Below, piece by piece: positions 12,508 to 36,408 of a stretch of 64,000 nucleotides of DNA. Below the pieces are notes generated by a model, which had not been told where the DNA came from, ran no database searches, and saw only the letters and a program-made list of their open reading frames with translations. The position numbers were made by a program, and so were the translations under genes. This stretch comes from Candidatus Spongiisociaceae bacterium (GTDB taxonomy: Bacteria > Actinomycetota > Acidimicrobiia > Spongiisociales > Spongiisociaceae): NCBI GenBank assembly GCA_965262915.1, contig OZ253564.1:4896001-4960000 (forward strand), given 5' to 3'. Positions within the stretch are counted from its first letter, which is position 1. Each line of letters starts with the position of its first letter.

Positions 12508-13302
12508 TCAGGCCCAGCCGAAGTGGTCGATCGGCCCTTCGCCCCGGCCCAGCCGCCATCCGGCTCCGCCCGCGATCGCCCGGGCTACCCAGGCTTTGGC
12601 CTCGCCGACCGCTACCAGGATGCCCGCACCCCCGGCCAAGCGAGCCGCTATGGATGCCGACAGGGCATCGCCGGTTCCATGCACGTTGCGGGACCGCACC
12701 CAGCGGCCCGGGAGCGAGTGGGTCTCGATCCCGTTCGAGAGGACGTCGACCGGTCGCTGCCCTTCGATGCGGCCTCCGGTGACCAGGATCGGGGTCCCGG
12801 TGGAACGGGCCAGGTCCCGAGCCACAGATTGCTGCTGGATCTCGCTGCGGACCGGCCGCCCAGCAAGCAGGGCGGCCTCGCGATGGTTGGGAGTGGCCAG
12901 GGTCGCGGCGGGTATCAGCTCCTCCCGGTAGGCGTCGATCGTCGCCTCGTCGACCAGGACATTCCCGTTCCGGTCTACCAGGACCGGATCCACCACCAGG
13001 TTCGGGAGCCTACGGGCGTGGTCGGCGACAAGCCGGACGACCTCCACCGAACCGAGCAGACCGGTCTTGACGGCATCCGGGGGGAGGTCTGCCAGCAAGG
13101 CCTTCATCTGGGCTGCAATCAGTCCGATCGCCATGGGTTCGGCTGCCTTCACACCTCTGGTGTTCTGGGCAGTGACCGTGGTAATCACGGTGGTGGCGAA
13201 GACGCCATGGGCCGAGAGCGTCTTGAGATCGGCCTGTACACCGGCGCCGGCGCCCGAGTCGCTGCCGCCGATCGCCATCACGATGGTCGGGGTGGCTGTC
13301 AT
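12508..13302 (-). CDS. thiD: Hydroxymethylpyrimidine/phosphomethylpyrimidine kinase
   Basis: IGGSDSGAGAGVQADLKT, TAQNT.GV, VVDPV, TPN..EA, HGTG motifs. Confidence 0.93.
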   Translation of the reverse strand: MTATPTIVMAIGGSDSGAGAGVQADLKTLSAHGVFATTVITTVTAQNTRGVKAAEPMAIGLIAAQMKALLADLPPDAVKTGLLGSVEVVRLVADHARRLPNLVVDPVLVDRNGNVLVDEATIDAYREELIPAATLATPNHREAALLAGRPVRSEIQQQSVARDLARSTGTPILVTGGRIEGQRPVDVLSNGIETHSLPGRWVRSRNVHGTGDALSASIAARLAGGAGILVAVGEAKAWVARAIAGGAGWRLGRGEGPIDHFGWA

Positions 13303-21896: not shown

Positions 21897-23477
21897 TCAG
21901 GCCCTGAGCACCGCGCCGTGGCGGGCTCCGGTCTCGGCGCCAGACACGATCGTCGGACCGCCGTTCACGATGAGGTGCTCGACCCCTACCGCCAGCCGGT
22001 TGGGATCTTCGAGGGAACCACGCTCGGCGAACCGGTCGCCGTCGAACACCGCGATGTCGGCCCTATGACCCTCACGTAGCTCACCGCGGTCGGCCAGCCC
22101 TACGCGGCCCGCCGGCTGCGCCGTGAGCTTGTGAACGGCCTCCTCGAGGGACAGGTGCGACGCCTCGCGCACCATGTGGCGGAAGAACCACGAGGCCCAG
22201 GTGTATGCGCCGAGGAAGGTCGTTTCGGCGAGCGGCCCGTCGATGCACAGCGCGGTGGCATCCGACTCCGTCGTGCATAGAGGATGGCGGAAGATCTCGG
22301 TCAGCATGTCCTCCTCGTAGCTGTGGACGATGACCAGAGCCGGGTGGGGATCGTCGCCTTCGGCGAGGAGAAGGTCGTAGATCGTGTCGAACACGTCGCC
22401 TCCTGGCGGAGTCAGGTCGGCCAGCGACCTTCCGACCCCCTCCGGCGACCCGTCGCTGGCGAACAAGAAGACGCGATCCCAGCCCCCCAGCCCGAACGAC
22501 GAGATGATGCTCTCATAGCGCTTGAGGCGGCGTCTCGCCGCCGGATCACGCAATCGGGCCGCGAGGTCGGCCGGTCCGCCTTCGAGCGCCCACTGCGGCA
22601 GGGAGGCGCTGAGGTTGGTGATGCCGTGGAGCCGTGTGTGTGCATCGAACTGCACGTCGAGCCCGTCGGCGACCGCGGCCTCGGCGAGCCCGATCATGGC
22701 CTCCAGGGCGCCGTCGGGAGCGCCGCGGTGGGGGATCAGATGCGAGAGCTGCAGCCTGACGCCCGATGCCATCGAGGCCCTGATGCCCTCTTCGACGGCC
22801 TCGATCGCAAGCAAGTCGCGCTCCCTCTCATGGGTGGCGTAGAGCCCGCCGCGTGCTGCGACGATGCGGCACAACTCGATGATCTCCTCTTCGGATGCAT
22901 GGTGCTCAGGCAGGTACTCCAGGCCGGTAGACAGCCCGAAAGCGCCGGCGTCCAGGGCGGCTTCGAGCAGCCTCGCCATGTCGCGGGTCTCGGAGGCCAT
23001 TGCCGGTCGGGCCACATCATCGACTGCAGCGATCCGGAGGTTGCCGTTGGGAACCAGGGTGGCAACGTTCACCACGGGGCGGAACTCGTCGAGAAGATCC
23101 AGGTAGTCGCCGAGGCTCCCCCAGTCGATCTTGAGCAGATCCTAGTACCCGTAGATGTTGCCCTTGAAGCGCTCGATGTCGCCCACGAAGGGCCCGCAGC
23201 CGTGGCCGCAGTTGCCGACCAACTCGGTGGTCACCCCCTGGTAGATCTGGCTCTGGGCCCTGGGGTCGACGAGCAGCGTGAAGTCCGAGTGGCTGTGGAT
23301 GTCGACGAAGCCGGGAGCGACCACCATTTCGGCGGCGTCGAGCGTGAGCGACGCCTCCCCACTCCGCAGATTCCCGATTGCGGCGATCCGGTCGCCGTTC
23401 ACACCGATGTCGGCGTTGCGGCCGGGAGCTCCCGTTCCGTCCACGACGAAGCCGCCGCTCACAACGATGTCAAACAT
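21897..23477 (-). pseudogene. N-acyl-D-amino-acid deacylase with one in-frame TAG
   Basis: VVAPGFVDIHSHSD, QGVTTE..GNCG, GLSTGLEY.P, G..ADIAVFD; two ORFs in the same frame separated by TAG at 23142-23144. Confidence 0.88.
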
Positions 23478-23488
23478 CGGTCTTCCCC

Positions 23489-24469
23489 TCACCACGCATC
23501 GGCGTAGAAGTTGCGAGGCCACGAGTGGTCCCGCAACTTCTCGAGCACCTCAGACACCAACAGCCGCCCGTCTGAGACGGCGCAATTCTGGCCCACATGA
23601 GCCAGCGAGCGCATCCCCGGGATAACGGTGGACACCGCGTCCTCGCTGAGACAGAAGCGCAGTGCGCCTTCGGCGAGGCTCGAGGCGTGCTCGGCGAGGG
23701 TCTCCGCTACTGCTCCGGCCCGGGCTACCGTCTCGGCCAGGCGGCCGCCTTTGAAGTAGCCGCGGCGCCAGTCACCGGCCGCAAACACGGTGTCGGAGCG
23801 GAGGGCACCAGTGAGGCCGCCCTCGTCGAATGGAGAACGGGCGATCACGCCGATGTCGAGTTCCTCGCATCGGGGCAGCAGGCGCTCGTGTGCCGACTGG
23901 TCGAAGAGGTTGTAGATCACCTGCACGGTGTCCACCAGTCCCGATTCCAACAGGCGCAGCACCGAATCGGGCTCATGATCGTTAGTGGACACCCCGAAGA
24001 ACCGGATCTTGCCCCCATTCTTGAGCGCCGACACCGCGTCCGCCCACTGGCCCTGGTCGGTCCAGGAGTCGGCCCAGAAGTGGAATTGCTGGAGATCGAT
24101 GTGGTCGGTGCCGAGACGGCGCAGGCTCTCCTCGGTGCACGATCGAATCCACCCCGGTGAATAGCAGTCCTCGACCGCCATGTCGTCGGTAGCGGGCCAC
24201 ACACGTGTCTCGAGCGGGACCTTGGTAGCGACAATGGGTGTGACATCCGGTCGGCTTACGAGGACCTCGCCTATCAACTCCTCCGACCGGCCTTCGCCGT
24301 ATCCGTACGCCGTGTCGATGAAGTTGACGCCCAAGTCCAAAGCGTGATGGAGGGCTTGCTTGGACCCCTCGTCGTCTCGCTCGCCCCAAGCCAGCCCACC
24401 GATGCCCCACGTCCCGATGCCGACTTCCGACACTTCCAGCCCGGTACACCCGAGCTTTCGGTAGCGCAT
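23489..24469 (-). CDS. Aldo/keto reductase
   Basis: LG.TGL.VSE.G.GTW, G.NFIDTA..YG.G.SE, ESL.RLGTD.IDL.Q.H. Confidence 0.93.
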   Translation of the reverse strand: MRYRKLGCTGLEVSEVGIGTWGIGGLAWGERDDEGSKQALHHALDLGVNFIDTAYGYGEGRSEELIGEVLVSRPDVTPIVATKVPLETRVWPATDDMAVEDCYSPGWIRSCTEESLRRLGTDHIDLQQFHFWADSWTDQGQWADAVSALKNGGKIRFFGVSTNDHEPDSVLRLLESGLVDTVQVIYNLFDQSAHERLLPRCEELDIGVIARSPFDEGGLTGALRSDTVFAAGDWRRGYFKGGRLAETVARAGAVAETLAEHASSLAEGALRFCLSEDAVSTVIPGMRSLAHVGQNCAVSDGRLLVSEVLEKLRDHSWPRNFYADAW

Positions 24470-24470
24470 C

Positions 24471-25175
24471 TCAACCTTCCGGGGGAAGCGGATTCCACTC
24501 TTCGTAGGTCATCCCGACGGCTTGTCGAGGCTCCTTGGTGCGGACGTGGTTGTAAATGTGCAGGTACGGCCGGTAGACATGGAGCAGGGAGCGAAGCTCG
24601 CCGACGGCGTCGGACGCGTGGAAGTCGATGCGCAAATCGATGTCGGGAAACGTATCCGTCTCGGCCACCACCAGCGTGGCCGAGCGCTCGTAGAAGTCCC
24701 CGCCCTGGCCTCCGGCATCGCGACCGGCCTCCAGGCCGGCCACCAAGCGATCCTCCACAGGATTACCCGCCGCCGACTCGAACGCATCGGCCATCGCTTC
24801 GACCACCCCTTCACCCTCGAGGGCGTTCCCCGTGGCGATGTAGCCGTCGCCGATGACGTGGCCGGACCAGTAGCCTGTCCTGTCCCCGGTGTGCGCAGCG
24901 GCGACCCCGTCCGGGGTCAGCACTGCCGTCTGGCGAAAGGCGTAGTCGGGATCAACGTCGGCCAACCCAGTGACGACTTCCCCAGGAGAGAGACCGCGCT
25001 CCAGCATGCCGGTTGCCACGGGGAGCAACCTGGGATCGGCGTACGCCTGGCTGGCGATCGCGCCGACCCCAGACCGGACCACCTGACAGTACCCGCCGGC
25101 GGCGATCGAGTGGGTGGCAATGCCGACGCCGACACGGCCCGTCGCAAAGTCACATCCGAGGATCGTGTAAGTCAT
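24471..25175 (-). CDS. DUF1028 family (Ntn-hydrolase-like) protein
   Basis: MTYTI, GVGAIASQA, RQ.AV, GN.L, AG..AGG, DLRID motifs. Confidence 0.85.
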   Translation of the reverse strand: MTYTILGCDFATGRVGVGIATHSIAAGGYCQVVRSGVGAIASQAYADPRLLPVATGMLERGLSPGEVVTGLADVDPDYAFRQTAVLTPDGVAAAHTGDRTGYWSGHVIGDGYIATGNALEGEGVVEAMADAFESAAGNPVEDRLVAGLEAGRDAGGQGGDFYERSATLVVAETDTFPDIDLRIDFHASDAVGELRSLLHVYRPYLHIYNHVRTKEPRQAVGMTYEEWNPLPPEG

Positions 25176-25400
25176 GTCGCCATTCCGCCTTTGCTGGTCA
25201 TTGCTGGTCCGGGCCGAGCCAACCGAACTCGTACGAGATCTGGTTGGCCGCTGCGATCACGAGAGCGGCGAGCGCGGCCTGGTCGTCCTCACCGGCGGGT
25301 GAAGCGACCGGGTCCGCTGTCGGCTGGGCCATCGGGGGTACCTCGTCGGGGGGTTTCCGATACTAGACCGCCGGGGTACCGGCAGACAGCCGCCCACGCG

Positions 25401-25583
25401 CTGGGGCGGGTCAGCCCCTGTCGAACTGGTCGTCGGTAAGCCGAGCGACGGCTTCGGGACCGGGCCGGGTGTAAACGCCGAGGGTGCGCAGATCCCCGGT
25501 GGCGGCTCTTGGCCTGCAGCATCACCGCCGAAGCTCCACCCTCCGGAGTGTCGGCCGAATAGGCACGACCCATAGCCCCGAGT
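25401..25583 (-). pseudogene. Tyrosine recombinase remnant 1 (internally deleted, frameshifted C-terminus)
   Basis: GGASAVMLQAKSRHR then (+1 shift) DLRTLGVYTRPGPEAVARLTDDQFDRG*, homologous to the C-terminus of 34987-35895. Confidence 0.75.
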
Positions 25584-25783
25584 ATCCCCCACCGGTAATG
25601 AGACAGCCCGGTAAATGCCCGGCTTCTACGACCCCAAGAATGGGAGAACCCCCGACCTTGCAGAGGTCCGGGGGCTCCCATGGGTGCTGGGATGTTAAGG
25701 ATACCAGAAACCTAACCGCCGACACCCAGCGACCGTCAACAACCGTGACCGACGGCCCGAACATGCGGTATTGCACATATCCG

Positions 25784-25816
25784 TCCCATACCTGCAATAA
25801 CCAGGCAGGTATGGGA
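25784..25816. other. Palindromic putative recombinase site TCCCATACCTGC-N9-GCAGGTATGGGA (copy 1)
   Basis: Perfect 12-bp arms around an asymmetric 9-bp spacer; upstream of recombinase remnant 1. Confidence 0.55.
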
Positions 25817-25932
25817 TGTTGTGGGGTTCGGTGTGGGTTGAGGGATCCCGATCGGGGGACGGGTTAAGGACCCGGGGGCTAGATGATGCCAGCGCTGGGG
25901 CTAGGAACCTCCACACCCGAGATCGTCGACCG

Positions 25933-26145
25933 CTAGGTGTCGTCCGTCCCAGACCCCGCCCCACGCTGCCGCCGGTCGAGGGCTTCCACGACGGCTTCTG
26001 CGACCGCGGCGGCGAAGCGGCGTCTGCCTCGCTCCGACCATGCCCGCCGTATCATCGGACCTACGATGATCCCCCCCAAAGCGATCCCACCGACGGTGAG
26101 GACCGTGGGAAGATCAGCATTGATAACAAGACCGCTGGTGTCCAC
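25933..26145 (-). CDS. 70-aa single-TM small protein (copy 1)
   Basis: Hydrophobic PTVLTVGGIALGGIIVGP followed by a basic tail; protein identical to 28320-28532; TACCTT -10-like box upstream. Confidence 0.55.
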   Translation of the reverse strand: MDTSGLVINADLPTVLTVGGIALGGIIVGPMIRRAWSERGRRRFAAAVAEAVVEALDRRQRGAGSGTDDT

Positions 26146-26223
26146 CGCGGAGAAGGTAGCACCAGTCGGGGAGCCACACCCCAGCGTGTCCGCCGCTCCA
26201 CCAACCCGGAGCCGCGGCTGCGC

Positions 26224-26324
26224 TCAGGCCCTGTCGAACTGGTCGTCGGTGAGCCGGGCGACGGCTTCGGGACCGGGCCGGGTGTAAACCCCGAGAGTGC
26301 GCAGATCCCGGTGGCGGCTCTTAG
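26224..26324 (-). pseudogene. Tyrosine recombinase remnant 2 (C-terminus, cut by IS1380)
   Basis: KSRHRDLRTLGVYTRPGPEAVARLTDDQFDRA*. Confidence 0.8.
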
Positions 26325-28140
26325 CCTGAATCCACCGACGGCCTCCCCGGGGGGTGGTCCGGGGTGCGGTTGGTGGGGGGTTGAGGGGTTGGGGCTGGTT
26401 GGATTCGGGGGGTTTCGGGGGTGTGGTGGGTGTGGTTTGGTGGGTTAGGTAGTGTTGGAGGCTGGTTGGGATGGTTTCGGGCGTGTGTGGTCGGGGTTTG
26501 GGTGGTTGGTTATGGTTGCGGCGGGTCCGTCGGGCCGGGTCAGCAGAGCTGTGGCAGCGCCCGGAGGTTAGTGAGGGTGGTTAGGTAGGCGCCGGCCCAG
26601 GGCCATCGGGCGGGTAGACGCAGGAGGCGGCGTCCGCCGTGGTTGACGAGGCGTCCAGGGAGTCCGAACAGTCGGGTACGGATGGTACGTCCACAGACCA
26701 GCCGCCCGGGCGGCTGCGTACCCCCGAGGAGGGCTATCTGCCGGTAGAGGTTATGGGCTAGGGCGGCGCAGATCAGCCAGGCGGCGTTAGCTGCGAAGAC
26801 GCCGGAGGGTAGGTGGGCGAGACCCCCGGAGTCTTTGAGGTCGCGGATGGCGAGTTCGCATGTGGCGTGGCGGCGGTGGTACCGGTCGATTTCGACCGCG
26901 GGCAGCGGGCTGTGCGCTTCCCCAGGGTTGTCACCGATCTCTACCACCGGCAGTTCGGCCACTTCGGTGTCTTGTTCTCCGCGGCGGGGTTGGTGGCCGG
27001 TGTCGTCTTGTCCGGCCCCGGGTTGGTGGCGCCGGTCGGCTTCTGCCGCGGGCAGGTCCAGGTTGGTGACGAACGCGTGGTATCGCCAGTCGGGCCACAG
27101 CTCGGCTTGGGAACCGAGCAGGCGGGTGCGGCGCACTACCAGGCGAACCCGGCGTTTCTGCGACCGTTTCTTGGGGTTGGTCATCTCCAGGACTGTTTCC
27201 CCCACTTGTGCCAGCCCGCCTTCGGGATAGGCAATGGGGGTCCACGCGTCTTTGTCGATATTGCTGATCAGTGTCCTAATCTTGGCATTCAGCGGGCAGG
27301 TGATCGACCAGCCCACCCCGAGGCGGTCGAGGGCGGCCAAGAGGGTATAGGACCAGAACCCCGAATCGGCCCGCACGCTCACCGGGCCCCTGGCCCCGGC
27401 CCGTCGCACACGCCGCACTGTCTCCCCAACGAAATGGACCACACCCCTCTGCGATGCTCCTTCCCGCAGACGGGCGCCGACCACTTCCCCCGTATCGGCT
27501 CGGAACGCCAACAGCGGGTGATAACCCAACTCTTTGGTGTAGCCATAGGCGGCCCCTTGTTTGGTCTTGGCAGACACCTCACAGATCGTCGAGTCCACAT
27601 CGAGGGTCACCGCTCCCTTACCGGGACCGGCGCCCGCCCCCCACGCACGGCCCAGCGCTACGGTCACCACCTTCTCCAACTGGCGTACATGACCCCAGGT
27701 GAACGAACGCAGGAAGGTTCCCACAGTGGACGGGGCCATCACCGCATGGGGCAACACCCGGTCGGTGGAACCCGCCCGGAGCCGATCCACATGGTCAATA
27801 TGGGAGGCGCCCACCAGCATCGCAGCTACCAACGTGCACACCTTACGACCCGGATGCGCGCCACCCACCCGGCCGCCCAACCGCACCGTCCGATCCACCA
27901 AACCTTCCAAACCCAAACGGTCCATCAACGTCCCGGCCGCCAACAACCCAGCGTCGGCCACCAGCCCCTCATCATCGAAAACCGCCCCATACCGGTCGAT
28001 ATTCTGCAATACTCCACTCACAGGAAGCGCCTCCAGACTCCGAGCCAATCACCATGTTTCGTATGGCTATTGTCCCAGATCAGAGGCACTTTCCGCGTCT
28101 ATCCACCCCCAACCACAGAATATCTACCGGTGGATTCAGG
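26325..28140 (-). mobile_element. IS1380-family insertion sequence
   Basis: 13-bp terminal IRs CCTGAATCCACCG / CGGTGGATTCAGG; flanked by TTAG and CTAA; contains transposase. Confidence 0.9.
26540..28048 (-). CDS. IS1380-family DDE transposase
   Basis: AGL...L...LGL, APST.GTFLRSF..GHVRQL, LDVDST, GYHPLLA, VRADSGF, HRRHA..E..IRDLK, LPSG.FAANAAWL, L.LP..WPW. Confidence 0.93.
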   Translation of the reverse strand: MARSLEALPVSGVLQNIDRYGAVFDDEGLVADAGLLAAGTLMDRLGLEGLVDRTVRLGGRVGGAHPGRKVCTLVAAMLVGASHIDHVDRLRAGSTDRVLPHAVMAPSTVGTFLRSFTWGHVRQLEKVVTVALGRAWGAGAGPGKGAVTLDVDSTICEVSAKTKQGAAYGYTKELGYHPLLAFRADTGEVVGARLREGASQRGVVHFVGETVRRVRRAGARGPVSVRADSGFWSYTLLAALDRLGVGWSITCPLNAKIRTLISNIDKDAWTPIAYPEGGLAQVGETVLEMTNPKKRSQKRRVRLVVRRTRLLGSQAELWPDWRYHAFVTNLDLPAAEADRRHQPGAGQDDTGHQPRRGEQDTEVAELPVVEIGDNPGEAHSPLPAVEIDRYHRRHATCELAIRDLKDSGGLAHLPSGVFAANAAWLICAALAHNLYRQIALLGGTQPPGRLVCGRTIRTRLFGLPGRLVNHGGRRLLRLPARWPWAGAYLTTLTNLRALPQLC

Positions 28141-28241
28141 CTAAGAGCCGCCACCGGGATCTGCACACTCTGGGGGTTTACACCCGGCCCGGTCCCGAAG
28201 CCGTCGCCCGGCTCACCGACGACCAGTTCGACAGGGCCTGA
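28141..28241 (+). pseudogene. Tyrosine recombinase remnant 3 (C-terminus, cut by IS1380)
   Basis: KSRHRDLHTLGVYTRPGPEAVARLTDDQFDRA*. Confidence 0.8.
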
Positions 28242-28319
28242 CAGCAGCGGCAGCTCCGGGTTGGTGGAGCGGCGGACACGCTGGGGTGTAGCCGCCCGAC
28301 TGGTGCTACCTTCTCCGCG

Positions 28320-28532
28320 GTGGACACCAGCGGTCTTGTTATCAATGCTGATCTTCCCACGGTCCTCACCGTCGGTGGGATCGCTTTGGGGGGGATCATC
28401 GTAGGTCCGATGATACGGCGGGCATGGTCGGAGCGAGGCAGACGCCGCTTCGCCGCCGCGGTCGCAGAAGCCGTCGTGGAAGCCCTCGACCGGCGGCAGC
28501 GTGGGGCGGGGTCTGGGACGGACGACACCTAG
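28320..28532 (+). CDS. 70-aa single-TM small protein (copy 2)
   Basis: Protein identical to 25933-26145. Confidence 0.55.
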   Translation: MDTSGLVINADLPTVLTVGGIALGGIIVGPMIRRAWSERGRRRFAAAVAEAVVEALDRRQRGAGSGTDDT

Positions 28533-28646
28533 CGGTCGACGATCTCGGGTGTGGATTCCTAGCCCCAGCGCTGGCATCATCTAGCCCCCGGGTCCTTAAC
28601 CCGTCCCCCGATCAGGATCCCTCAACCCACACCGAACCCCACAACA

Positions 28647-28679
28647 TCCCATACCTGCCTGGTTATTGCAGGTATGGGA
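28647..28679. other. Palindromic putative recombinase site (copy 2)
   Basis: TCCCATACCTGC-CTGGTTATT-GCAGGTATGGGA, upstream of recombinase remnant 4. Confidence 0.55.
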
Positions 28680-28894
28680 CGGACATGTGCAATACCGCAT
28701 GTTCGGGCTGTCGGGCACGGTCGCTGGGACAGGGCCGGGTGTCGGCGGTTGGGTTTCTGGTATCCTTAGCAACCCACACCCATGGGAGCCCCCGGACCTC
28801 TGCAAGGTCGGGGGTTCTCCCATTCTTGGGGTTGTAGAGGCCGGGCATTTACCGTGCCGTGTTGTTCGTTTCTCCCCACCTGTGGGTCCGGGTC

Positions 28895-29227
28895 CGGTGT
28901 CACCGGTTCATCCGGTGTGTCATGTGCCGTCTGTGGGTGGGCGGTGGAGGCGTTCTTCGCCGGCCGTGATCTGGCTTCGGCGACTTGTCGTACTTACCGT
29001 CAGGCTCTCGGTCCTCTCGTCGAAACGGTGGGTAGTGATCGTCCTGTCACCGACCTCGACGCCGACCGGGTAGCGGCTGTGTTCGAGGAGTTGTGGGCCG
29101 ACCACACGCCGGCGGCGTGGAACACTCGGCGGGTGGCGGTGCAGGCGTTCGCTTCGTGGTGTGGGGAGCGATGGCCCCTGGCCGGCGATCTGCTGGTGGG
29201 GGTGGGTCCACGCCGCCGGCGGACGGC
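28895..29227 (+). pseudogene. Tyrosine recombinase remnant 4 (N-terminus, frameshifted and truncated)
   Basis: VPSVG / AVEAFFAGRDLASATCRTYRQAL...LW....PAAWNTRRVAVQAFASW aligns with VPSLGRAVEQFLAAKPLSPNARRSY...WGNAAAATWNSR of 34987-35895. Confidence 0.8.
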
Positions 29228-29259
29228 TCCCCCAGGCAAGGAGCTATCCGCGCATCCTC
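29228..29259. mobile_element. Isolated end of MITE family B
   Basis: CCCCAGG...CTATCCGCGCATCCTC + TAA resembles the right end of 44829-44972. Confidence 0.6.
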
Positions 29260-29263
29260 TAAG

Positions 29264-29440
29264 CCTGGATCCACCGAAAGGGATGTGGGTGTGGTGTCGC
29301 CTGAGCGAATGGAAGGCTCTTGATCGTCTTGCGAACGCCACGTGGGCCTCGCCTGCGTCGGCTGCGTTGGCTGGTCCGGTGGCTGGTGGTGGACGGTTGT
29401 CCCGATCGTGGCTGCTGGCTATGCCCTCGACTGGCTCCTG
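29264..29440. mobile_element. Truncated IS1380-like end
   Basis: CCTGGATCCACCG (1 mismatch to the IS1380 IR) followed by G/T-rich DNA like the intact IS left end; right boundary approximate. Confidence 0.5.
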
Positions 29441-29457
29441 AGTTGATTACCCGCCTG

Positions 29458-29501
29458 CGGAGGGGTAGACCGCTGCCACCGGCGGTGAACAGCCAGGTAA
29501 C
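29458..29501 (+). repeat. 44-bp direct repeat, copy 1 (Tn3-IR-like GGGG start)
   Basis: 35/44 identical to 31297-31340. Confidence 0.7.
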
Positions 29502-29725
29502 CGGTTCCCCCAGCACGCCATGGCGGCTCTCCCCCCTCGAGGGTTTCGGGCGGAAACACCCCACAACCAGCTGTCAGAACGCTAACCAACACAACACAAA
29601 CGGCTAGAAGCCGGTCTACGGGCTGGGAGAACCCTGCCACGACCCAGGGAGGCTTAACCGCTCCGGTTTGTACGGTTCACCCGGACCGGCCAGAAATCAT
29701 CGGGGGTTGGGCGGGTCGGTCTGTT

Positions 29726-31159
29726 TCAGCTGGTGCAGCCTTGGCCGTCTCCGTCACGGTCCAAGCGGTAGGGGTCCACACCGGCCACGAGTACGGTTAC
29801 CGGTTTCTGCGCGGTGGTCAGGTCACCACAGTTGAGCGCGTCGCCTTCCAGGTAGGGGATGCACGGACTGTAATCAGGGTGGCATCCCTGTTCGGGGGTG
29901 CTGGTGGCGGTCGTAGTCGTCACTGCCGGTGCCGGCAGTGCCGCATCGGCAGCATCGTCGGGACAGTCCGAGATGATGCCCCTCAGGGTGTCAGCCTCGG
30001 CTGTGTCCACACTGAGTTCCCACCGTACCTTGACATGGATCCACGCCGCCGCATACCAACAACGCTGCGACACTTCGGGTGGCAGCCAAGTTGTGGGATC
30101 CTGCGCACCCTTCGAACGGTTCGACCCAGCAGACACCCCAACAAGGGAATGCTCGTAACCAAGATCGTTAGCGAACCGTTCCCTGTCCTGAGAGTCCCAG
30201 CTGTGGGCCCCGGACTCCCACGCTTCTTTGAGCGGGACTAGATGATCGATATCGAAACCGCGTCCGCTGCCCGTCTCGGTCAAAGCGTCGTAGCGACTCA
30301 CCCACACCCCACCCGACAGGACACAACCCCCACCAACCGTCGGTGCGGTCACAGCCTCGGCGATCAACACTTCGCGGCGGGTGTCGCAGCCGTCCCCATC
30401 CGCGTCGATCCAATGACGGAACAGGTCCCGGTCGTAACCGTCGGGCTGTTCCACCACCACAGACAACCCGTCCAACAAAACCACCAAACCCCCGTCAGCC
30501 ACCGGCGCCTCGAGGTCGAGGGCCCGCACCAAAAACGTCGCCATCTGCGCGCGGGTAACAGACTGATCCGGGCAGTAACGCAAAGGACCGGTCTTACACC
30601 CCGAAGTCACACCAGCCGCTGCTAGAGCATCAATATTCTCCTCATGTGTGTTGCCCCCGGTATCGGCAAAACCAGCCGCCGGCGCGGCTTCGAGGTCGAG
30701 GGCCCGCACCAAAAACGTCGCCATCTGCGCGCGGGTAACAGACTGATCCGGGCAGTAACGCAAAGGACCGGTCTTACACCCCGAAGTCACACCCAGGTCA
30801 GCAAGACGTTCGACATAACTCACCCACCAAACAGCGGGGTCCACATCGGCGAACCGTGTCTCGACTTCGGAACCTTCCGGTGCCTGGTTGAGGGCTCGGG
30901 TGACCCACACCGCCATAACCCAACGCAGAAGCGGATCCCCAGGACAGACCCGCCGTTCGCCGCATTCGGTACCGTCAAGAACCCCCGCCTCCGACAGCCT
31001 GTTAATCGACGGTTCGTGAACGCCCCCATCGTCGTCAAAACTATCCGATTCTGCTCCCACCACCACAGCAGCAGCCCCAACAGCAGCCAACGCGGCCACA
31101 GCCACCCACAACAAACGGAAACGCATCCCAACCCCAAACCAGACTCGCCAAACATGCAT
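29726..31159 (-). CDS. Secreted S-layer-homology protein with DUF1524 HNH nuclease and Excalibur-like C-terminus
   Basis: Signal peptide; SLH repeats (CPDQSVTRAQMATFLVRAL); YDRDLF.HW.D.DGDGCDTR, DIDHLVPL.EAW.SGA, NRSKG; LNC.D...DPYRLDRDGDG.GC. Confidence 0.88.
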   Translation of the reverse strand: MHVWRVWFGVGMRFRLLWVAVAALAAVGAAAVVVGAESDSFDDDGGVHEPSINRLSEAGVLDGTECGERRVCPGDPLLRWVMAVWVTRALNQAPEGSEVETRFADVDPAVWWVSYVERLADLGVTSGCKTGPLRYCPDQSVTRAQMATFLVRALDLEAAPAAGFADTGGNTHEENIDALAAAGVTSGCKTGPLRYCPDQSVTRAQMATFLVRALDLEAPVADGGLVVLLDGLSVVVEQPDGYDRDLFRHWIDADGDGCDTRREVLIAEAVTAPTVGGGCVLSGGVWVSRYDALTETGSGRGFDIDHLVPLKEAWESGAHSWDSQDRERFANDLGYEHSLVGVSAGSNRSKGAQDPTTWLPPEVSQRCWYAAAWIHVKVRWELSVDTAEADTLRGIISDCPDDAADAALPAPAVTTTTATSTPEQGCHPDYSPCIPYLEGDALNCGDLTTAQKPVTVLVAGVDPYRLDRDGDGQGCTS

Positions 31160-31296
31160 CCTAAACCCTGTCCGAACCGCCCCAACCCGGGACCATCAAC
31201 CAACACCGGCGAAGACCCCGACGCAGGAGCCACGACGCTGGCTGCCACAACACGCCCAGTCTGCCTAACTCCCCCACCACCCCCTGAGCCTCGCTA

Positions 31297-31340
31297 CGGA
31301 GGGGTAGTCCGCTGCCAACAGGGGTGAACAACCACCTGAG
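31297..31340 (+). repeat. 44-bp direct repeat, copy 2
   Basis: See 29458-29501. Confidence 0.7.
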
Positions 31341-31349
31341 CGACTACAG

Positions 31350-31710
31350 GCCGTTCTCCAACGCGACAGCCTCGTCGTCGGGGTCCTTCAGCGCCAAAGA
31401 CTTCACCCCCCGTGCCCAACCTGACCCCAACGGGCCGCTGTTCGCGAAAAAGATCGTGTTCACCGGCACGCTGGAGTGCATGCCGCGGCGAGAAGCGTTT
31501 CAAGCAACAGTCGACGCAGGAGCCGCCCCGATCGGATCTGTGAGCAAGCGCACCGACTATCTCGTCGCAGGAGCCACCGACCTTCCGCAAGGTCGGGGAA
31601 TCAGGGCTGAGCACCAAACACCGCAAGGCCCTCGCCCTAGCCGCTACAGGCAACCACATCCAGATCATCGACGAGGACCAGTTCATGTGCCTCCTCGCCG
31701 GCACAGTCAC
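31350..31710 (+). pseudogene. BRCT-domain remnant (as in DnaQ-like exonuclease-BRCT proteins), frameshifted
   Basis: PLFAKKIVFTGTL..M.R.EA......G....SVSKRTDYLVAG, then in a shifted frame S.KHRKALAL...G..IQIIDEDQF. Confidence 0.75.
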
Positions 31711-32007
31711 CAGCGACGCTCCCATCGCTCACAGCGACGACGATGCCAGTCACCACCGACCCACACTCGCCTAAAGCAGAGCCCCAACCCCCGGTGCGGC
31801 AGAACACCCCGAACGCCGGTGAGACGGTTGTTCCACATCGCCGACGATGCGTCACCCCAGCGGTCCTCGAGGACGCGGCATACCCGCTCGGCGCTAACCC
31901 CGGAACCGGACACAAGGGTGGTGGTCGACATACTTAAACAGTTGGGCACCCCTCCGGTTTTGCAAGGGCCGGGGGTCGCTGATTTGCCGGCGGCGAAGGG
32001 GCCCCAC

Positions 32008-32075
32008 ACAGAAACAGCCCCAGCCAGGCGGCTGGGGCCGTCGGGCCGGGGCTACTCACCCCGGCGGGGTACCCC
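32008..32075 (-). ncRNA. Candidate ~70-nt structured small RNA divergent from the NYN gene
   Basis: Minus-strand promoter upstream; hairpin 32045-32065; 11-bp stem 32015-32040 followed by UUUCUGU (terminator-like). Confidence 0.5.
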
Positions 32076-32078
32076 CCG

Positions 32079-32108
32079 ATTATCCGACGCCGACCACCCG
32101 ATTGTCAA
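32079..32108 (-). promoter_or_regulatory. Sigma70-like promoter TTGACA-N18-GATAAT
   Basis: Perfect -35 at 32103-32108 and 5/6 -10 at 32079-32084 on the minus strand. Confidence 0.6.
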
Positions 32109-32126
32109 GTACCTTCTCTCCTGACG

Positions 32127-32765
32127 ATGAGCCAACAACGGGTGATCACCTACATCGACGGCTACAACCTGTACCACGGTCTGCTGGAAGCAGGTCTGCG
32201 TTCCTCACGGTGGCTCGACCTCCCCAAGCTCGGCAGGTCGCTTCTGAAACCCGGCCAGCACCTGGTCCTGACCAGGTATTTCACGACCCGGGTGAAAGGT
32301 GACCCGGCCAAGGCCCGCCGCCAGGCCCGCTACATCGATGCTCTCACAACCCGGGGAGGCATCGAGATCGACTTCGGCCACTTCTTATCCAAACGCGTCA
32401 CCTGCCACAGCTGCGGACACACCTGGACCAAAAGCGAAGAGAAAAAGACCGACGTGAACATAGCGGTACGGATGCTCGAAGACACCTACGACGACCGCTT
32501 CGACACAGCCATAGTCATCTCCGGTGACAGCGACCTCGCCACACCGGTCGAGACGATCCGAAAACGGTACCCCCACAAGCGGGTGCTAGTCGCGTTCCCA
32601 CCGAAACGCTACTCCCACGAACTCCGCCGGGTCGCCGGCGTCACGTTCAGGATCTTCAACCGCAACATCCGAACAAGCCACCTACCAGCAACCGTCACCA
32701 CCAACGGCGGGATCGCCCTCACAGCCCCACAAGGATGGCTGCCAACCCCCACGACCAACACGTAA
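32127..32765 (+). CDS. NYN (LabA/DUF88, PIN-like) ribonuclease with CxxC insert
   Basis: YIDGYNLYHG, RYFT, CHSC, EEKKTDVNIA, ISGDSDL, FPP motifs. Confidence 0.92.
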   Translation: MSQQRVITYIDGYNLYHGLLEAGLRSSRWLDLPKLGRSLLKPGQHLVLTRYFTTRVKGDPAKARRQARYIDALTTRGGIEIDFGHFLSKRVTCHSCGHTWTKSEEKKTDVNIAVRMLEDTYDDRFDTAIVISGDSDLATPVETIRKRYPHKRVLVAFPPKRYSHELRRVAGVTFRIFNRNIRTSHLPATVTTNGGIALTAPQGWLPTPTTNT

Positions 32766-32953
32766 ACCAGGGAACACGTGGTTGCCTCCCCGATCAGGTG
32801 GGTACCGAAGGGAAGTCACGGTGTTCCGAACCCTGGGGTCCGTCGCCCGCTCTCGAGGCCTTGAGGCCTCCTGTCCACACCGAACCTGCACTGTCATATA
32901 CACAGACTGCTTGGATTTGTATATACCCGGGCTGCACCAGGTGGCCACTGGCC

Positions 32954-34147
32954 CTACCGCGGAGTGGGGGTGTACCTGCTGAGTTCGTAGCCTCCGGGTT
33001 GATCGGGAGGATCGGCAGGCGGCAGTGATGAGGCTGGCTGGGCGGGGGCAATGCTGAGACGCACGGCGGGTTCTTGCTCTCCTACGAGGTGGTCTATCAG
33101 GGTACGTGGGAGGCAGAGCGTGTTGGCGAGGTCGTCTCGAGGGATCCCGAGGCTTTCGGCTTGTTCTACGCATCGGCGGAGGAGGATGGGCTGTTCGGGG
33201 GGGCCGAGGGTTCCGGGTTCGTTGATTCGCCATGTGGTTCCGTCAGCGTTCTTGGCTGTGCTGAGCTTGATGAACGCCCGCCGGTAGCTGTGTTCGGATA
33301 TGGTGCCCAGGTTTTTTGCTCGCACGATCAGCGACTGTAGAGAAACCCCCCAATGCCGTTTTAGTCTGAACAGCATGTTCCAGTCGAGCGGTGATGCCAG
33401 ATATGGGGCTACCTCGTCGGCTGGTAGGAGGAAGGCAGACGCGAAGGCGTGGGCTTGCTGCTCGACGATCTGGCTTCCCGGCTCCGTGTCGTCGTGTGCT
33501 ACCAGATGACCGAATTCGTGGGCCGCGTCGTGGCGGGAACGGGCCTTGTCGCCTTTGTCGGAGTTCAACACGACAATGGGGCGGTCTTCGAGCACACAGG
33601 AGAACGCGTCGACCTTCTCGCACCCGACCGGTAACCTGACTACCACCGCGCCGAGGCTTTCCAGGTGTCGGGTCATGTTGCCTATTGGAGCCGACCCTAG
33701 GTTCAGAAGCCGCCGGCACTCGCCAGCGAGGTTCTCCATGTCGTCCCTTGACGCCCGTTCCGGTAGCACAGCCCTCGGGAAGGCTACTGGTGGGATGGAT
33801 AGATAGCTCTCCAAGAGGTTGGTGAGTTCCCAAGCGAAGACCGCATGTGTGAGCGCTCGGCGGCGGTCTCGTACAGGAGTCGAACGAAGGCTCCGGAAGT
33901 GCACCACGCTGCTGCTGGCAGCTGCCGTCGGCCGTCCCGGCACGAAGAACTCGCGTGGCATGCCCAACGCTATCGCGATCCTGGCTATCACACCACGGGT
34001 GGGTTGATAGGTTCCGTTCTCGTACTGCGATACCGCCGCGGGTGTCACCTCCGCCGCGACGGCCAGCTGCCTCCTGGTCCAGCCTTTGGCTTCGCGGGCC
34101 ATCCGAAGACGGTCCCGGTCAAAGGCTACAGCTCTTCTATTCCGCAT
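32954..34147 (-). CDS. XRE HTH + ImmA/IrrE (DUF955) metallopeptidase, Rv2017-like
   Basis: RLRMARE.KGWT...LA....VT.AAVSQYENG...P; HFRSLRS; HDAAHEFGH (HExxH); E.QA.AFASAFLLP; LKRHWGVS. Confidence 0.92.
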   Translation of the reverse strand: MRNRRAVAFDRDRLRMAREAKGWTRRQLAVAAEVTPAAVSQYENGTYQPTRGVIARIAIALGMPREFFVPGRPTAAASSSVVHFRSLRSTPVRDRRRALTHAVFAWELTNLLESYLSIPPVAFPRAVLPERASRDDMENLAGECRRLLNLGSAPIGNMTRHLESLGAVVVRLPVGCEKVDAFSCVLEDRPIVVLNSDKGDKARSRHDAAHEFGHLVAHDDTEPGSQIVEQQAHAFASAFLLPADEVAPYLASPLDWNMLFRLKRHWGVSLQSLIVRAKNLGTISEHSYRRAFIKLSTAKNADGTTWRINEPGTLGPPEQPILLRRCVEQAESLGIPRDDLANTLCLPRTLIDHLVGEQEPAVRLSIAPAQPASSLPPADPPDQPGGYELSRYTPTPR

Positions 34148-34923
34148 TCCTGAGAGGGCTCAATCAAGATCCTGGGTTCGGATATCTGATCGTAGGACGG
34201 GCCGGACGGGCCACCGGGGCTTGGCGCCACCGAGACACCGCCTAGGGCGTCACCGTCTTCGCCGCATCCTCTCTCCGCGCAGAAGTCAGGGAGGCGAAGC
34301 GTGAAGAAATACCGCGAACCTGAGGTACGACCCCTAGGGGCTCCGACCCACATTCCGAGGAGGCCTTCCAACGGACCGCCGTAGTGAACGATGTACCACA
34401 CGGGAAGACCCAACCGTGCGGCATGCTCGCCGAGACCGATCCGGTCTCGGTCGAACAGAGACAACTGTTGAAACTTGTTTCTTGCTACATTCCGTCGTTT
34501 CGTGATCGACCCGGACCCCGGGTCGTAACCCTCGAGCTTGAACGAAGGGTCTGACCCGCCACGGTAAACCTTGATCTCCAGTCCCCCCGCTGTGGTGATC
34601 GTAAGGGAATTCCCCGGACGCGCAACGGTGACATCCGGGTGGCGCCCAGATAGTCGTTCCTCGATTCGCCACCACGAGTGCCGCCAGATGCTTAGACCAT
34701 GGAGGGTCCGATCGTCGCCTATTGCCTCGTCGTAGCGCTCACCGTTGGCCCGGTACACGTCGTCGAGGATGTGCTGCAGGTCATGCAGAAACCCCTCCGG
34801 GTCCTCAAGCCCCATCCCAGCACATACGTCCTCAAACGTCGGCCCGCTGCTAGTGATAGGATCCCCCTCCCTCTTCTTCTGCTCGACGGCTGGTACGAAC
34901 AGAACTATATCATACCCGCTCAT
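34126..34923 (-). CDS. Hypothetical partner of XRE-ImmA protein (Rv2016-like putative toxin)
   Basis: Overlaps the XRE gene start; ...N..QQLSLF motif typical of such partners. Confidence 0.6.
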   Translation of the reverse strand: MSGYDIVLFVPAVEQKKREGDPITSSGPTFEDVCAGMGLEDPEGFLHDLQHILDDVYRANGERYDEAIGDDRTLHGLSIWRHSWWRIEERLSGRHPDVTVARPGNSLTITTAGGLEIKVYRGGSDPSFKLEGYDPGSGSITKRRNVARNKFQQLSLFDRDRIGLGEHAARLGLPVWYIVHYGGPLEGLLGMWVGAPRGRTSGSRYFFTLRLPDFCAERGCGEDGDALGGVSVAPSPGGPSGPSYDQISEPRILIEPSQECGIEEL

Positions 34924-34986
34924 AACTCGGTAGTAAATGAAGCTAGTCCACCAGGTGGGCTTCCTGAACTGAAGGCGGTGGTCTCC

Positions 34987-35895
34987 TTACTCCGGGTAGC
35001 GACGGCCCGGGTCGTGCTCGGCGGTCAAGGCGGCTACCGCTTCTATACCCGGCCGTACGTACCGGTCGAGGCTGCGCAGGCTGCGGTGGCGGCTTTTGGC
35101 TTTCAGCAGCGGTGCACCTACTCCCCTCTCGCCTAGATGGGTGAGGGCGGAGTGGCGCAGCTGGTGCAGCGTCCAGCCCGACGCGTTGCGGAACAGCTTC
35201 CAGGCCTGCTGATACGACAGGCGTCCCCGCCCCGTGTCAGGACACACATCAGAAAGGGCCGGTGCCTGGTTGGGTCGGCGGTGGGTGACGAACACCGGTC
35301 CCCGCTGCCGGCCACCCAAATATCGGGGCAGGAGGCGGGCGGTTCCCGAAGCCCACACCACTTCTTGGCGGTGGCCGCCTTTGCCCCTCACCACAGCCCT
35401 CCTAGCCCCCAAGTCGAGGTCCTCAATGTTGAGGGCCAGTATCTCGTTCGCCCGGGCGGCGGTTTCGTACAGCATCCTCCACAGCGTCTTTTCCCGAACG
35501 TGGATATCCGCTCGGGTCCAGAGGGTGTGCAGCTGTTCGTAGCGGACCGGTGCGGTGTCGTCCCGTACCTGCGGGCGGCGTTCTATCCCCGCCAGCGGAT
35601 CCTCGGTTACCCAACCCTGCGCCTGTACCCAACGGCGGAACGACCCCACCGCCGCCAGACGACTGTTCCACGTCGCCGCCGCCGCGTTCCCCCATCGCTG
35701 CTCGAGGACCCCTCGCAGCCGTTCGGGAGTGGCATCGGCCAGAGCAGAACCGGCACCGAGGTCCGACACGACTGCCCCCAGACAGTACGCGTAGCTGCGT
35801 CGGGCGTTTGGGGACAGCGGTTTGGCGGCGAGGAACTGTTCGACAGCGCGGCCCAGAGACGGCACCCGATCCGGGAGAAGAACAACCTCAGCCAT
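34987..35895 (-). CDS. Tyrosine recombinase/integrase (intact)
   Basis: LYETAAR (R), RGKGG (K), HQLRH (HxxR), SRH, RY (Y); AAGGAAGG RBS. Confidence 0.93.
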   Translation of the reverse strand: MAEVVLLPDRVPSLGRAVEQFLAAKPLSPNARRSYAYCLGAVVSDLGAGSALADATPERLRGVLEQRWGNAAAATWNSRLAAVGSFRRWVQAQGWVTEDPLAGIERRPQVRDDTAPVRYEQLHTLWTRADIHVREKTLWRMLYETAARANEILALNIEDLDLGARRAVVRGKGGHRQEVVWASGTARLLPRYLGGRQRGPVFVTHRRPNQAPALSDVCPDTGRGRLSYQQAWKLFRNASGWTLHQLRHSALTHLGERGVGAPLLKAKSRHRSLRSLDRYVRPGIEAVAALTAEHDPGRRYPE

Positions 35896-35908
35896 CCCAG
35901 GACCTTCC

Positions 35909-36021
35909 TTAGTAGAGATAACAGGCAGGGTTCACCGGAAGGGACGGTAACCGCTCCCCCAGCGTGTTCGGGGTTTCGTTCCGCTGTTAGTAGAGATTCC
36001 GCCAATATCTCCAGTAGCTGC
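35909..36021. promoter_or_regulatory. Putative recombinase binding/recombination region
   Basis: TTAGTAGAGAT repeated at 35909 and 35987; second copy forms an imperfect inverted repeat with ATCTCCAGTAG (36007-36017). Confidence 0.5.
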
Positions 36022-36408
36022 TGGGACGCAGCCCGTAGCTGGCGGCCAAACGAGGTGGCAGCCTTCCGGAACGCCCCGGGTGATCGCCATCAGCGGGGGT
36101 TGAGCCTGTTCTGTGGTCCCAACGGTCGCTTCTGCCATCCACGTGATCGTTCTGCGAGACAGCGATCATGTGGACGCAACTGCTGCATACCAGATACGTC
36201 TACCTTTGGACCTGATCCGTCGGTACGCGCCCGGGACCAATCGCGGCTACCTAATAGGCCTTCTTCTCCCGCCTACCCGAATGCCCTCGAAACTCAACTC
36301 GGCGTGTATGCGGGGCGCCCCATAGATACCGCGCTCCGGAGTGGGGGTGTAGATCAGGTCCGCTTACAACGGAAGCGCCGCGAATCGTTAGGCGGGGATC
36401 CGACGCTG

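Follow-up and report, generated by a model that had tools for sequence, protein, structure and literature searches.

What assembles genes around a tyrosine recombinase that occurs several times, once intact and otherwise in pieces, within a single genomic island? The question is raised by positions 25201 to 36351 of the stretch of DNA analyzed here (the window, 64 kb of contig OZ253564.1 of a Candidatus Spongiisociaceae bacterium). An earlier note on this DNA saw there a tandem chain of self-contained units, each with its own enzyme, site, and cargo. Comparison with relatives leads to a different answer: a resolvase module derived from Tn3-family transposons, free of the transposase in this lineage, probably joins DNA at a short core site by occasional intermolecular or pseudo-site recombination.

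A family of single-protein tyrosine resolvases

The intact gene (34987-35895, minus strand; domain hits and catalytic residues), which we call type A, encodes 302 amino acids with the complete R-K-H-R-H-Y set (R148, K172, H244, R247, H270, and Y279). It has a SAM-like core-binding domain and a catalytic domain and gave no arm-binding domain hit, the layout of a simple, arm-less tyrosine recombinase. The remnants, ca. 50% identical to it at the protein level, were named type B, split into B1 and B2, and a sister type was named D. All of the copies listed in the earlier note, the intact gene and four remnants of the same family, were recovered, and a fifth remnant that it had missed was added, ca. 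100 bp of an A-type N-terminal domain (31797-31913, minus strand) with no upstream site detected. A near-consensus sigma-70 promoter (11/12; 32108-32079, minus strand) is directed at this fifth remnant, divergent from the NYN nuclease gene described below. Types A and B have many close relatives, often broken (2,796 hits among 8,000 scored candidates; 84 hits among 1,781), and the genome records nearest to them belong to metagenome-assembled Acidimicrobiia, with Ca. Spongiisociaceae as the title of one.

A scan of the GTDB gave 458 relatives, of which the best 79 were examined; together with four of 14 loci from isolate plasmids, they make up a survey of 83 loci. A Tn3 transposase was found in the fetched flanks of 31 of the 83 (within ca. 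300 bp in 12) and at 8 of the 14 isolate-plasmid loci. The intact enzyme clustered with the transposase-adjacent L013, L014, and L016 (SH-aLRT 94) in a quick tree that left out the frameshifted L009, L019, and L025. The Tn3-type origin considered in the earlier note is supported. Nothing pointed to an integrase of a phage or of an integrative and conjugative element: there was no arm-domain hit, a comparison with 50,697 phage records gave no match, and the window contains no tRNA. Rfam gave no match in the window at gathering thresholds. Judged by sequence comparison, which establishes the Tn3 link, the family identity, and the anatomy of the site alike, the family as a whole is one of single-protein tyrosine resolvases of Tn3-family transposons.

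The window locus itself is not a Tn3 transposon. No Tn3 transposase was hit in the whole window, and the single pattern hit to the 38-bp terminal repeats of Tn3 falls inside a recombinase remnant. A Tn3 transposase was likewise hit in none of the 13 loci of types A, B, and D (0/13, eight of them with ca. 10 kb on both sides). Genes for restriction, AbiEii, Kiwa, Avs, and SLH proteins abound in the neighborhoods of these loci. These absences tell against ordinary debris, that is, Tn3 transposons and insertion sequences (ISs) piled into a defense island, with the transposases lost, the extra sites described below being leftovers, and the exchange of arms at the resolution (res) site a known by-product. 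ISs all over the window and the loci, the broken state of most copies, the resemblance of the plasmid copies to plain resolvases, and the res-site arm exchange published for Tn3 (in the available text of PMC7157771) would all suit such an origin, which we nonetheless consider unlikely, also in view of the inserts found in relatives.

Anatomy of the core site

The family site lies upstream of the gene and consists of two inverted arms of ca. 12 bp around 9 asymmetric nucleotides (the core), with a third half-site that repeats the right arm in direct orientation 66-100 bp beyond it (the accessory half-site). A core with an arm symmetry of at least 8/12 was found upstream of the recombinase in 56 of the 81 loci searched and in 0.7% of 1,490 random windows, the inner motifs used in this search having been derived from the same loci that were then tested. 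On shuffled sequence, the position weight matrix (PWM) built for the core produced no hits per 100 kb at a threshold of 16 bits. Aligned upstream, the homologues do not look like resolvases always tied to a Tn3 transposase: their cores are conserved, their cargo varies, and many copies have no such transposase nearby. Core arms co-vary with the recombinase subfamily, and spacers differ from copy to copy. In L054, L061, L062, L067, L072, L079, L082, and L083 the arms of the upstream cores are 0.96-1.0 identical and the spacers 0.70. Near-constant arms with differing spacers recall heterospecific lox sites and, by that analogy, may keep co-resident elements from recombining.

In front of the intact enzyme, the accessory half-site adjoins the start codon (35909-35920, minus strand; alignment of relatives and matrix scan), and an A-type core follows at 35987-36017 (minus strand; compared with L030, L032, L005:2490, and the translations of P0004 and P0007). 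The gap of this core measures 7 nt instead of the 9 of the family, and the core may be inactive. Two B1-type cores lie farther left. The left copy (25768-25800, minus strand; 12-bp arm, 9-nt spacer, 12-bp arm) scored 38 bits with the PWM, could be aligned with L009, L019, and L025, and has its accessory half-site deleted; the right copy (28663-28695, plus strand) was recognized by PWM and the alignment of relatives. Neither B site of the window has a third half-site.

The 12-9-12 palindromes that had been taken for the sites of these remnants (25784-25816 on the left and 28647-28679 on the right, outward-facing and with one arm in common with the core) do exist in two copies. In an inverted-repeat scan they were the sole perfect inverted repeats with arms >9 bp within 25200-36400. 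As recombination sites they were rejected, since their polarity is reversed and they are missing upstream of 3/3 aligned B1 relatives.

The core as a joining point in relatives

Breakpoints and inserts of related loci coincide with the core. Identity left of it drops to 0.25-0.33 in 6 of 7 groups (in the seventh, 0.52 in the nearest 30 bp), with the right arm at 0.83-1.0. Extra cores numbered 11 vs 0.8 expected in 66 loci, and arrays reach up to four cores; L006 has three further cores, two with identical spacers, and toxin-antitoxin and membrane genes between them. Loci of the group of the window held extra cores in 6 of 13 cases vs 5 of 66 for the other GTDB loci, two counts made with different methods. 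The cassettes between cores mostly have no enzyme of their own, and some of the extra sites are inverted or are full resolution sites without an enzyme.

Two pairs of loci display different contents at one site beside the recombinase, both among the relatives and not at the A site of the window. In the empty locus L078, an intact core stands directly after a gene; in the filled locus L060, the same gene is followed by a core whose left arm is good and whose right arm is poor, then by an insert of 3,961 bp with other genes, a core with a poor left and a good right arm, and the recombinase, the insert being flanked by reciprocal hybrid cores. No plasmid relative covering the L078 junction was found. 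The second pair, L047 and L048, has the transposase end and the left arm in common (95%), carries different inserts (4.6 and 3.5 kb), and rejoins at the next core. A left-arm swap at the site was also seen in L061, L062, and L083. L006, L007, L008, and L048 contain pairs of cores in direct orientation whose spacers agree at 8 or 9 of the 9 positions. Comparison of these sequences establishes the accretion of genes at the core in relatives. Core-only sites and reciprocal hybrids with common spacers would be unexpected from the deletion of whole transposons and, together with the empty/filled pair L078/L060, they are hard to reconcile with accumulated debris.

Accretion could mean a dedicated integron-like system, with cassettes leaving as one-core circles and re-entering through the core that precedes a sedentary recombinase. 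This is what the near-identical spacers of the reciprocal hybrid cores around the inserts in L048 and L060, the arrays in L005 and L006, a cargo gene in L048 whose stop codon lies inside a core arm, and the occurrence in three different positions of homologues of a small transmembrane (TM) gene of the window would suggest. We consider it less likely than not. The same cassette between cores at two unrelated sites was never seen among the surveyed loci, the cargo frame of L060 extends across the left core, which fits capture at a chance pseudo-site, and the inverted or enzyme-less full sites are at odds with it. The look-alike pdif modules, moreover, move by cointegration, not excision (according to the available text of PMC11705084), and the same could therefore hold for these cores.

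Among the cargo of relatives, a ShosA-like DprA gene and its partner lie right behind a D-type recombinase (L008:11166-12814), and an inverted full site at 12997 ends the block. In L019 (10989-11852), a cargo gene with four tandem 72-bp repeats and no Pfam match lies between two recombinase pieces.

A mirrored junction in the window

The B-type pieces of the window are arranged around an IS1380 element with 12-bp terminal repeats (26325-28140, minus strand; NF033539, E 2e-89). Outward from the element, both sides run from a recombinase end through the TM gene, the site, and the hairpin to a recombinase start, as the earlier note described, except that the left start amounts to only ca. 10 nt. 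Adjoining the IS are two copies of a B2-type C terminus (26224-26324, minus strand, truncated by the IS, and 28141-28241, plus strand). They are followed by two copies, identical across the gene, of the 70-amino-acid single-TM gene (25933-26145, minus strand, and 28320-28532, plus strand; one hydrophobic stretch, Kyte-Doolittle value 1.94), which has a homologue following a recombinase in L009 (54%) and another, flanked by two cores, in L005 (42%). Beyond the core, the hairpin insert (28765-28845, plus strand, z -3.3; mirror copy near 25620-25700) separates it from the recombinase gene; this insert is also present in L009 and absent from L019 and L025. On the right, the N-terminal third of a B1-type recombinase follows, its start codon lost (28857-29230, plus strand). 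On the left is a deleted chimera, a B1-type start of ca. 10 nt fused by deletions to a B2-type C terminus (25411-25573, minus strand; 89% to L005). The hairpin stretch 28785-28813 is 83% like 31570-31598, inside the BRCT remnant described below.

The C-terminal pieces belong to B2 (DNA identity of 87-89% to L005 vs 75-79% to B1 loci), and their tail was found in 0 of 25 B1 proteins that reach the C terminus, while the core and the N-terminal piece are of B1 type; two different paralogues therefore lie head to tail. However, the two sides do not count as two cases. A 737-bp inverted repeat, 95.8% identical, abuts the IS on both sides, its copies meeting the element at the same CTAAG position, and because a single unit is mirrored around IS1380, the sides are not independent and the window holds no chain. 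This mirror duplication was established by comparing the copies. The copies differ at ca. 30 positions, with divergence climbing across the core from 2.0% (11/545) to 11% (19/172; P 3e-6), and beyond them the sequences are unlike each other. A long inverted repeat adjoining an IS, with frameshifts close by, might suggest an assembly or read artifact; fold-back copies would be near identical, however, and the differences, their step at the core, and the continuation into different sequences make this highly improbable.

Some of this would agree with self-contained units, each integrating by its own enzyme and stacked head to tail: the junction of B2 end, TM gene, core, and B1 start recurs in the translations P0171, P0190, and P0198, L019 has two same-strand B pieces 1.1 kb apart, and there are many degenerate copies among the 84 hits. 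Yet two intact same-strand enzymes occurred in none of the 83 surveyed loci and a second family copy of any sort in 5, most loci have no second core downstream of the gene, so that the right end of a unit would be undefined, and the cassettes between cores mostly lack enzymes. Nor was a core found among the genes named as cargo in the window, where only the TM gene stands between a recombinase and a core. We consider such units improbable. What stands of the integron- or pdif-like outcome envisaged in the earlier note is the accretion at the site in relatives; the window itself is no such chain.

To the right of the mirrored copies, a lone IS1380-like end follows CTAAG (29264-29275, plus strand), and behind it another membrane-protein 3'-end fragment (29340-29441) is weakly like the TM gene of L005 (E 0.095).

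Proposed mechanism

We propose that the module of site and gene multiplied in this Acidimicrobiia lineage without a nearby transposase and that the core would be the crossover point at which recombination with another core, or with a core-like chromosomal sequence, attaches new DNA. The product would be a core-cargo-core-recombinase arrangement, and repeats of the joining would build short arrays. The joined DNA would mostly be enzyme-less and at times bring a paralogue, yielding the order of B2 end, TM gene, core, and B1 start. In the window, this junction would have been present twice, IS1380 would have inserted into both at the same CTAAG, and the IS copies, to judge from their ends, would have recombined and fused the two junctions back to back, leaving a decayed relic of the joining process. 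We infer both catalysis by the intact enzyme and the capture route from sequence. According to the available text of PMC2847244, cores of TnpI that lack the accessory motifs recombine both within one molecule and between molecules. Travel of the cargo as circles seems to us somewhat doubtful.

Several observations weigh against core-directed joining. The group of the window has a single core in 7 of 13 loci, and a second core was found at 0 of 14 isolate-plasmid loci (a core in 11 of 14), in which homology extends for another ca. 100 bp to the left of the core, the pattern of an ordinary transposon end. The double-core examples all come from metagenome-assembled genomes, with the exception of L072 (a convergent duplicate), and the 79 GTDB loci had been ranked by a B-type query. 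One core pair with 8/9 spacer matches (L007:16803-20814) surrounds MMPL and D-Tyr-tRNA deacylase genes, which look chromosomal. In the window, the core of the intact enzyme is 2 nt shorter than in its relatives, a single 60-bp stretch contains 13 of the 19 differences to the right of the B1 core, and three scans found no core in 28696-35986, including among the SLH-nuclease, BRCT, NYN, and RosmerTA genes.

Comparison with known systems

The closest parallel in site layout is TnpI/IRS of Tn4430 and Tn5401, also a single tyrosine recombinase with an upstream site made of an inverted core and a direct-repeat accessory motif (available text of PMC7157771 and PMC2847244), and linked, as are many relatives here, to a Tn3 transposase. 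The likeness is one of layout; Bacillus plasmid hits are ca. 24% identical. The present family differs in having one accessory half-site found, not two, in a 9-nt region between the inner GATA/TATC motifs that is strongly variable between copies, and in being actinobacterial (best non-actinobacterial plasmid hits, 24-28% identical); the group of the window, in addition, has no transposase, and extra cores bound cargo. The recombinase of the Rhodococcus plasmid pFAJ2600, presumably the one named PmrA, is 42% identical over its full length and has the same upstream core, but it occurs once, on a plasmid of 5.9 kb where a Tn3-like end lies ca. 40 bp from the core and no array is present.

As in the pdif/xrs modules of Acinetobacter plasmids, accessory genes lie between short double-stranded tyrosine recombinase sites whose spacers vary by site. 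Unlike them, the family has a single enzyme of its own and does not use the host XerCD (71 and 63 bits vs XerC and XerD cut-offs of 335 and 330), and many core pairs are in direct orientation. Integrons share an insertion point that adjoins the recombinase gene and arrays of defense and toxin-antitoxin genes, but the enzyme is not IntI (TIGR02249, 16.9 bits vs a cut-off of 265), the sites are short duplex palindromes, and the cassettes, of 1-4.6 kb and in either orientation, form arrays of a few units at most. For attC, there was no Rfam match in the window and no repeated element behind each cargo gene, a dedicated attC model not having been run. Gene gain at the res site of Tn3 transposons, with arm exchange and toxin-antitoxin genes beside res (available text of PMC7157771), is similar in that cargo abuts the crossover site and left arms are swapped, and different in that the inserts here lie between two cores and the module persists without a transposase. 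In its operation the system resembles a small integron or a pdif array, without belonging to either class.

The available text of a tyrosine recombinase survey (10.1101/542381) describes no such system. A literature search found no paper on the family or its cassettes, its coverage being thin for subscription journals and supplements lying outside its scope (members of the family could figure in the transposon tables of PMC7157771).

Island neighbors and edges

The gene annotations of the earlier note between the mirrored copies and the intact enzyme were supported by domain and PADLOC hits. A protein with SLH, GmrSD_C (HNH-like), and Excalibur domains (29726-31159, minus strand; domain hits) is followed by a frameshifted BRCT remnant (31324-31770, plus strand; weak Pfam hit, E 0.009) and a NYN nuclease (32127-32765, plus strand; PADLOC HEC-09 and domain hits). 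Next comes the RosmerTA pair, made up of the XRE-peptidase M78 antitoxin RmrA (32954-34147, minus strand; PADLOC, E 9e-113) and its partner RmrT, immediately downstream of the intact recombinase (34126-34923, minus strand; PADLOC, E 3e-14). As no core was found among them, we regard the SLH-nuclease, BRCT, NYN, and RosmerTA genes as neighbors in the island and not as demonstrated cassettes.

Within the SLH-nuclease gene, 30496-30613 and 30673-30793 form an internal repeat, 96% identical, that encodes SLH domains. The gene is bracketed by a 41-bp direct repeat (85%; 29455-29495 and 31294-31334), both copies of which overlap reading-frame starts; it was discarded as a core, being unlike the cores and unmatched by blastn in the loci. 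Two shorter candidates, 29497-29520 (21 bp, like the A accessory region) and near 31950 (17 bp, like the B2 region), were also dropped, having no nhmmer support.

At the left edge of the island, the 3' end of a chromosomal gene, which we take to be IclR-like, is truncated (25201-25290, minus strand; 94% match to the tail of P0208), and in P0208, from another genome, this tail is fused to the start of the TM gene. L019 matches 23165-25231 of the window at 93-97% and then diverges to other genes with two same-strand B pieces. The spot, beside a DUF1028 gene (window 25201-25330, P0208, and L019:4362), is a hot spot, where the DNA inserted differs among at least three genomes. The right edge carries a remnant of an IS3-family element (36100-36351, minus strand).

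Implications

How Tn3 transposons gain genes at the resolution site is unclear at the molecular level, and only three single-tyrosine-resolvase transposons are counted among 190, according to the available text of PMC7157771. With the present family, that set gains a large group from actinobacteria (458 GTDB stretches and 197 plasmid records), and the family offers a concrete, testable route by which Tn3 transposons and defense islands could gain genes right at the resolution site. Orthogonal pairs of enzyme and site, comparable to Cre, could be drawn from the natural cores, whose arms are fixed and whose spacers are many. A further step is possible, though we would not yet favor it: a resolvase escaped from Tn3 transposons may have become an integron-like platform, with duplex lox-like cores, variable 9-nt spacers, and blocks of mostly defense and surface genes, some with a paralogous enzyme, that excise and re-insert beside the enzyme to form arrays in Acidimicrobiia and some soil actinobacteria. 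Gene blocks, often anti-phage, have in relatives been inserted exactly at the core, a hint of a little-known, integron-like mode of gene collection.

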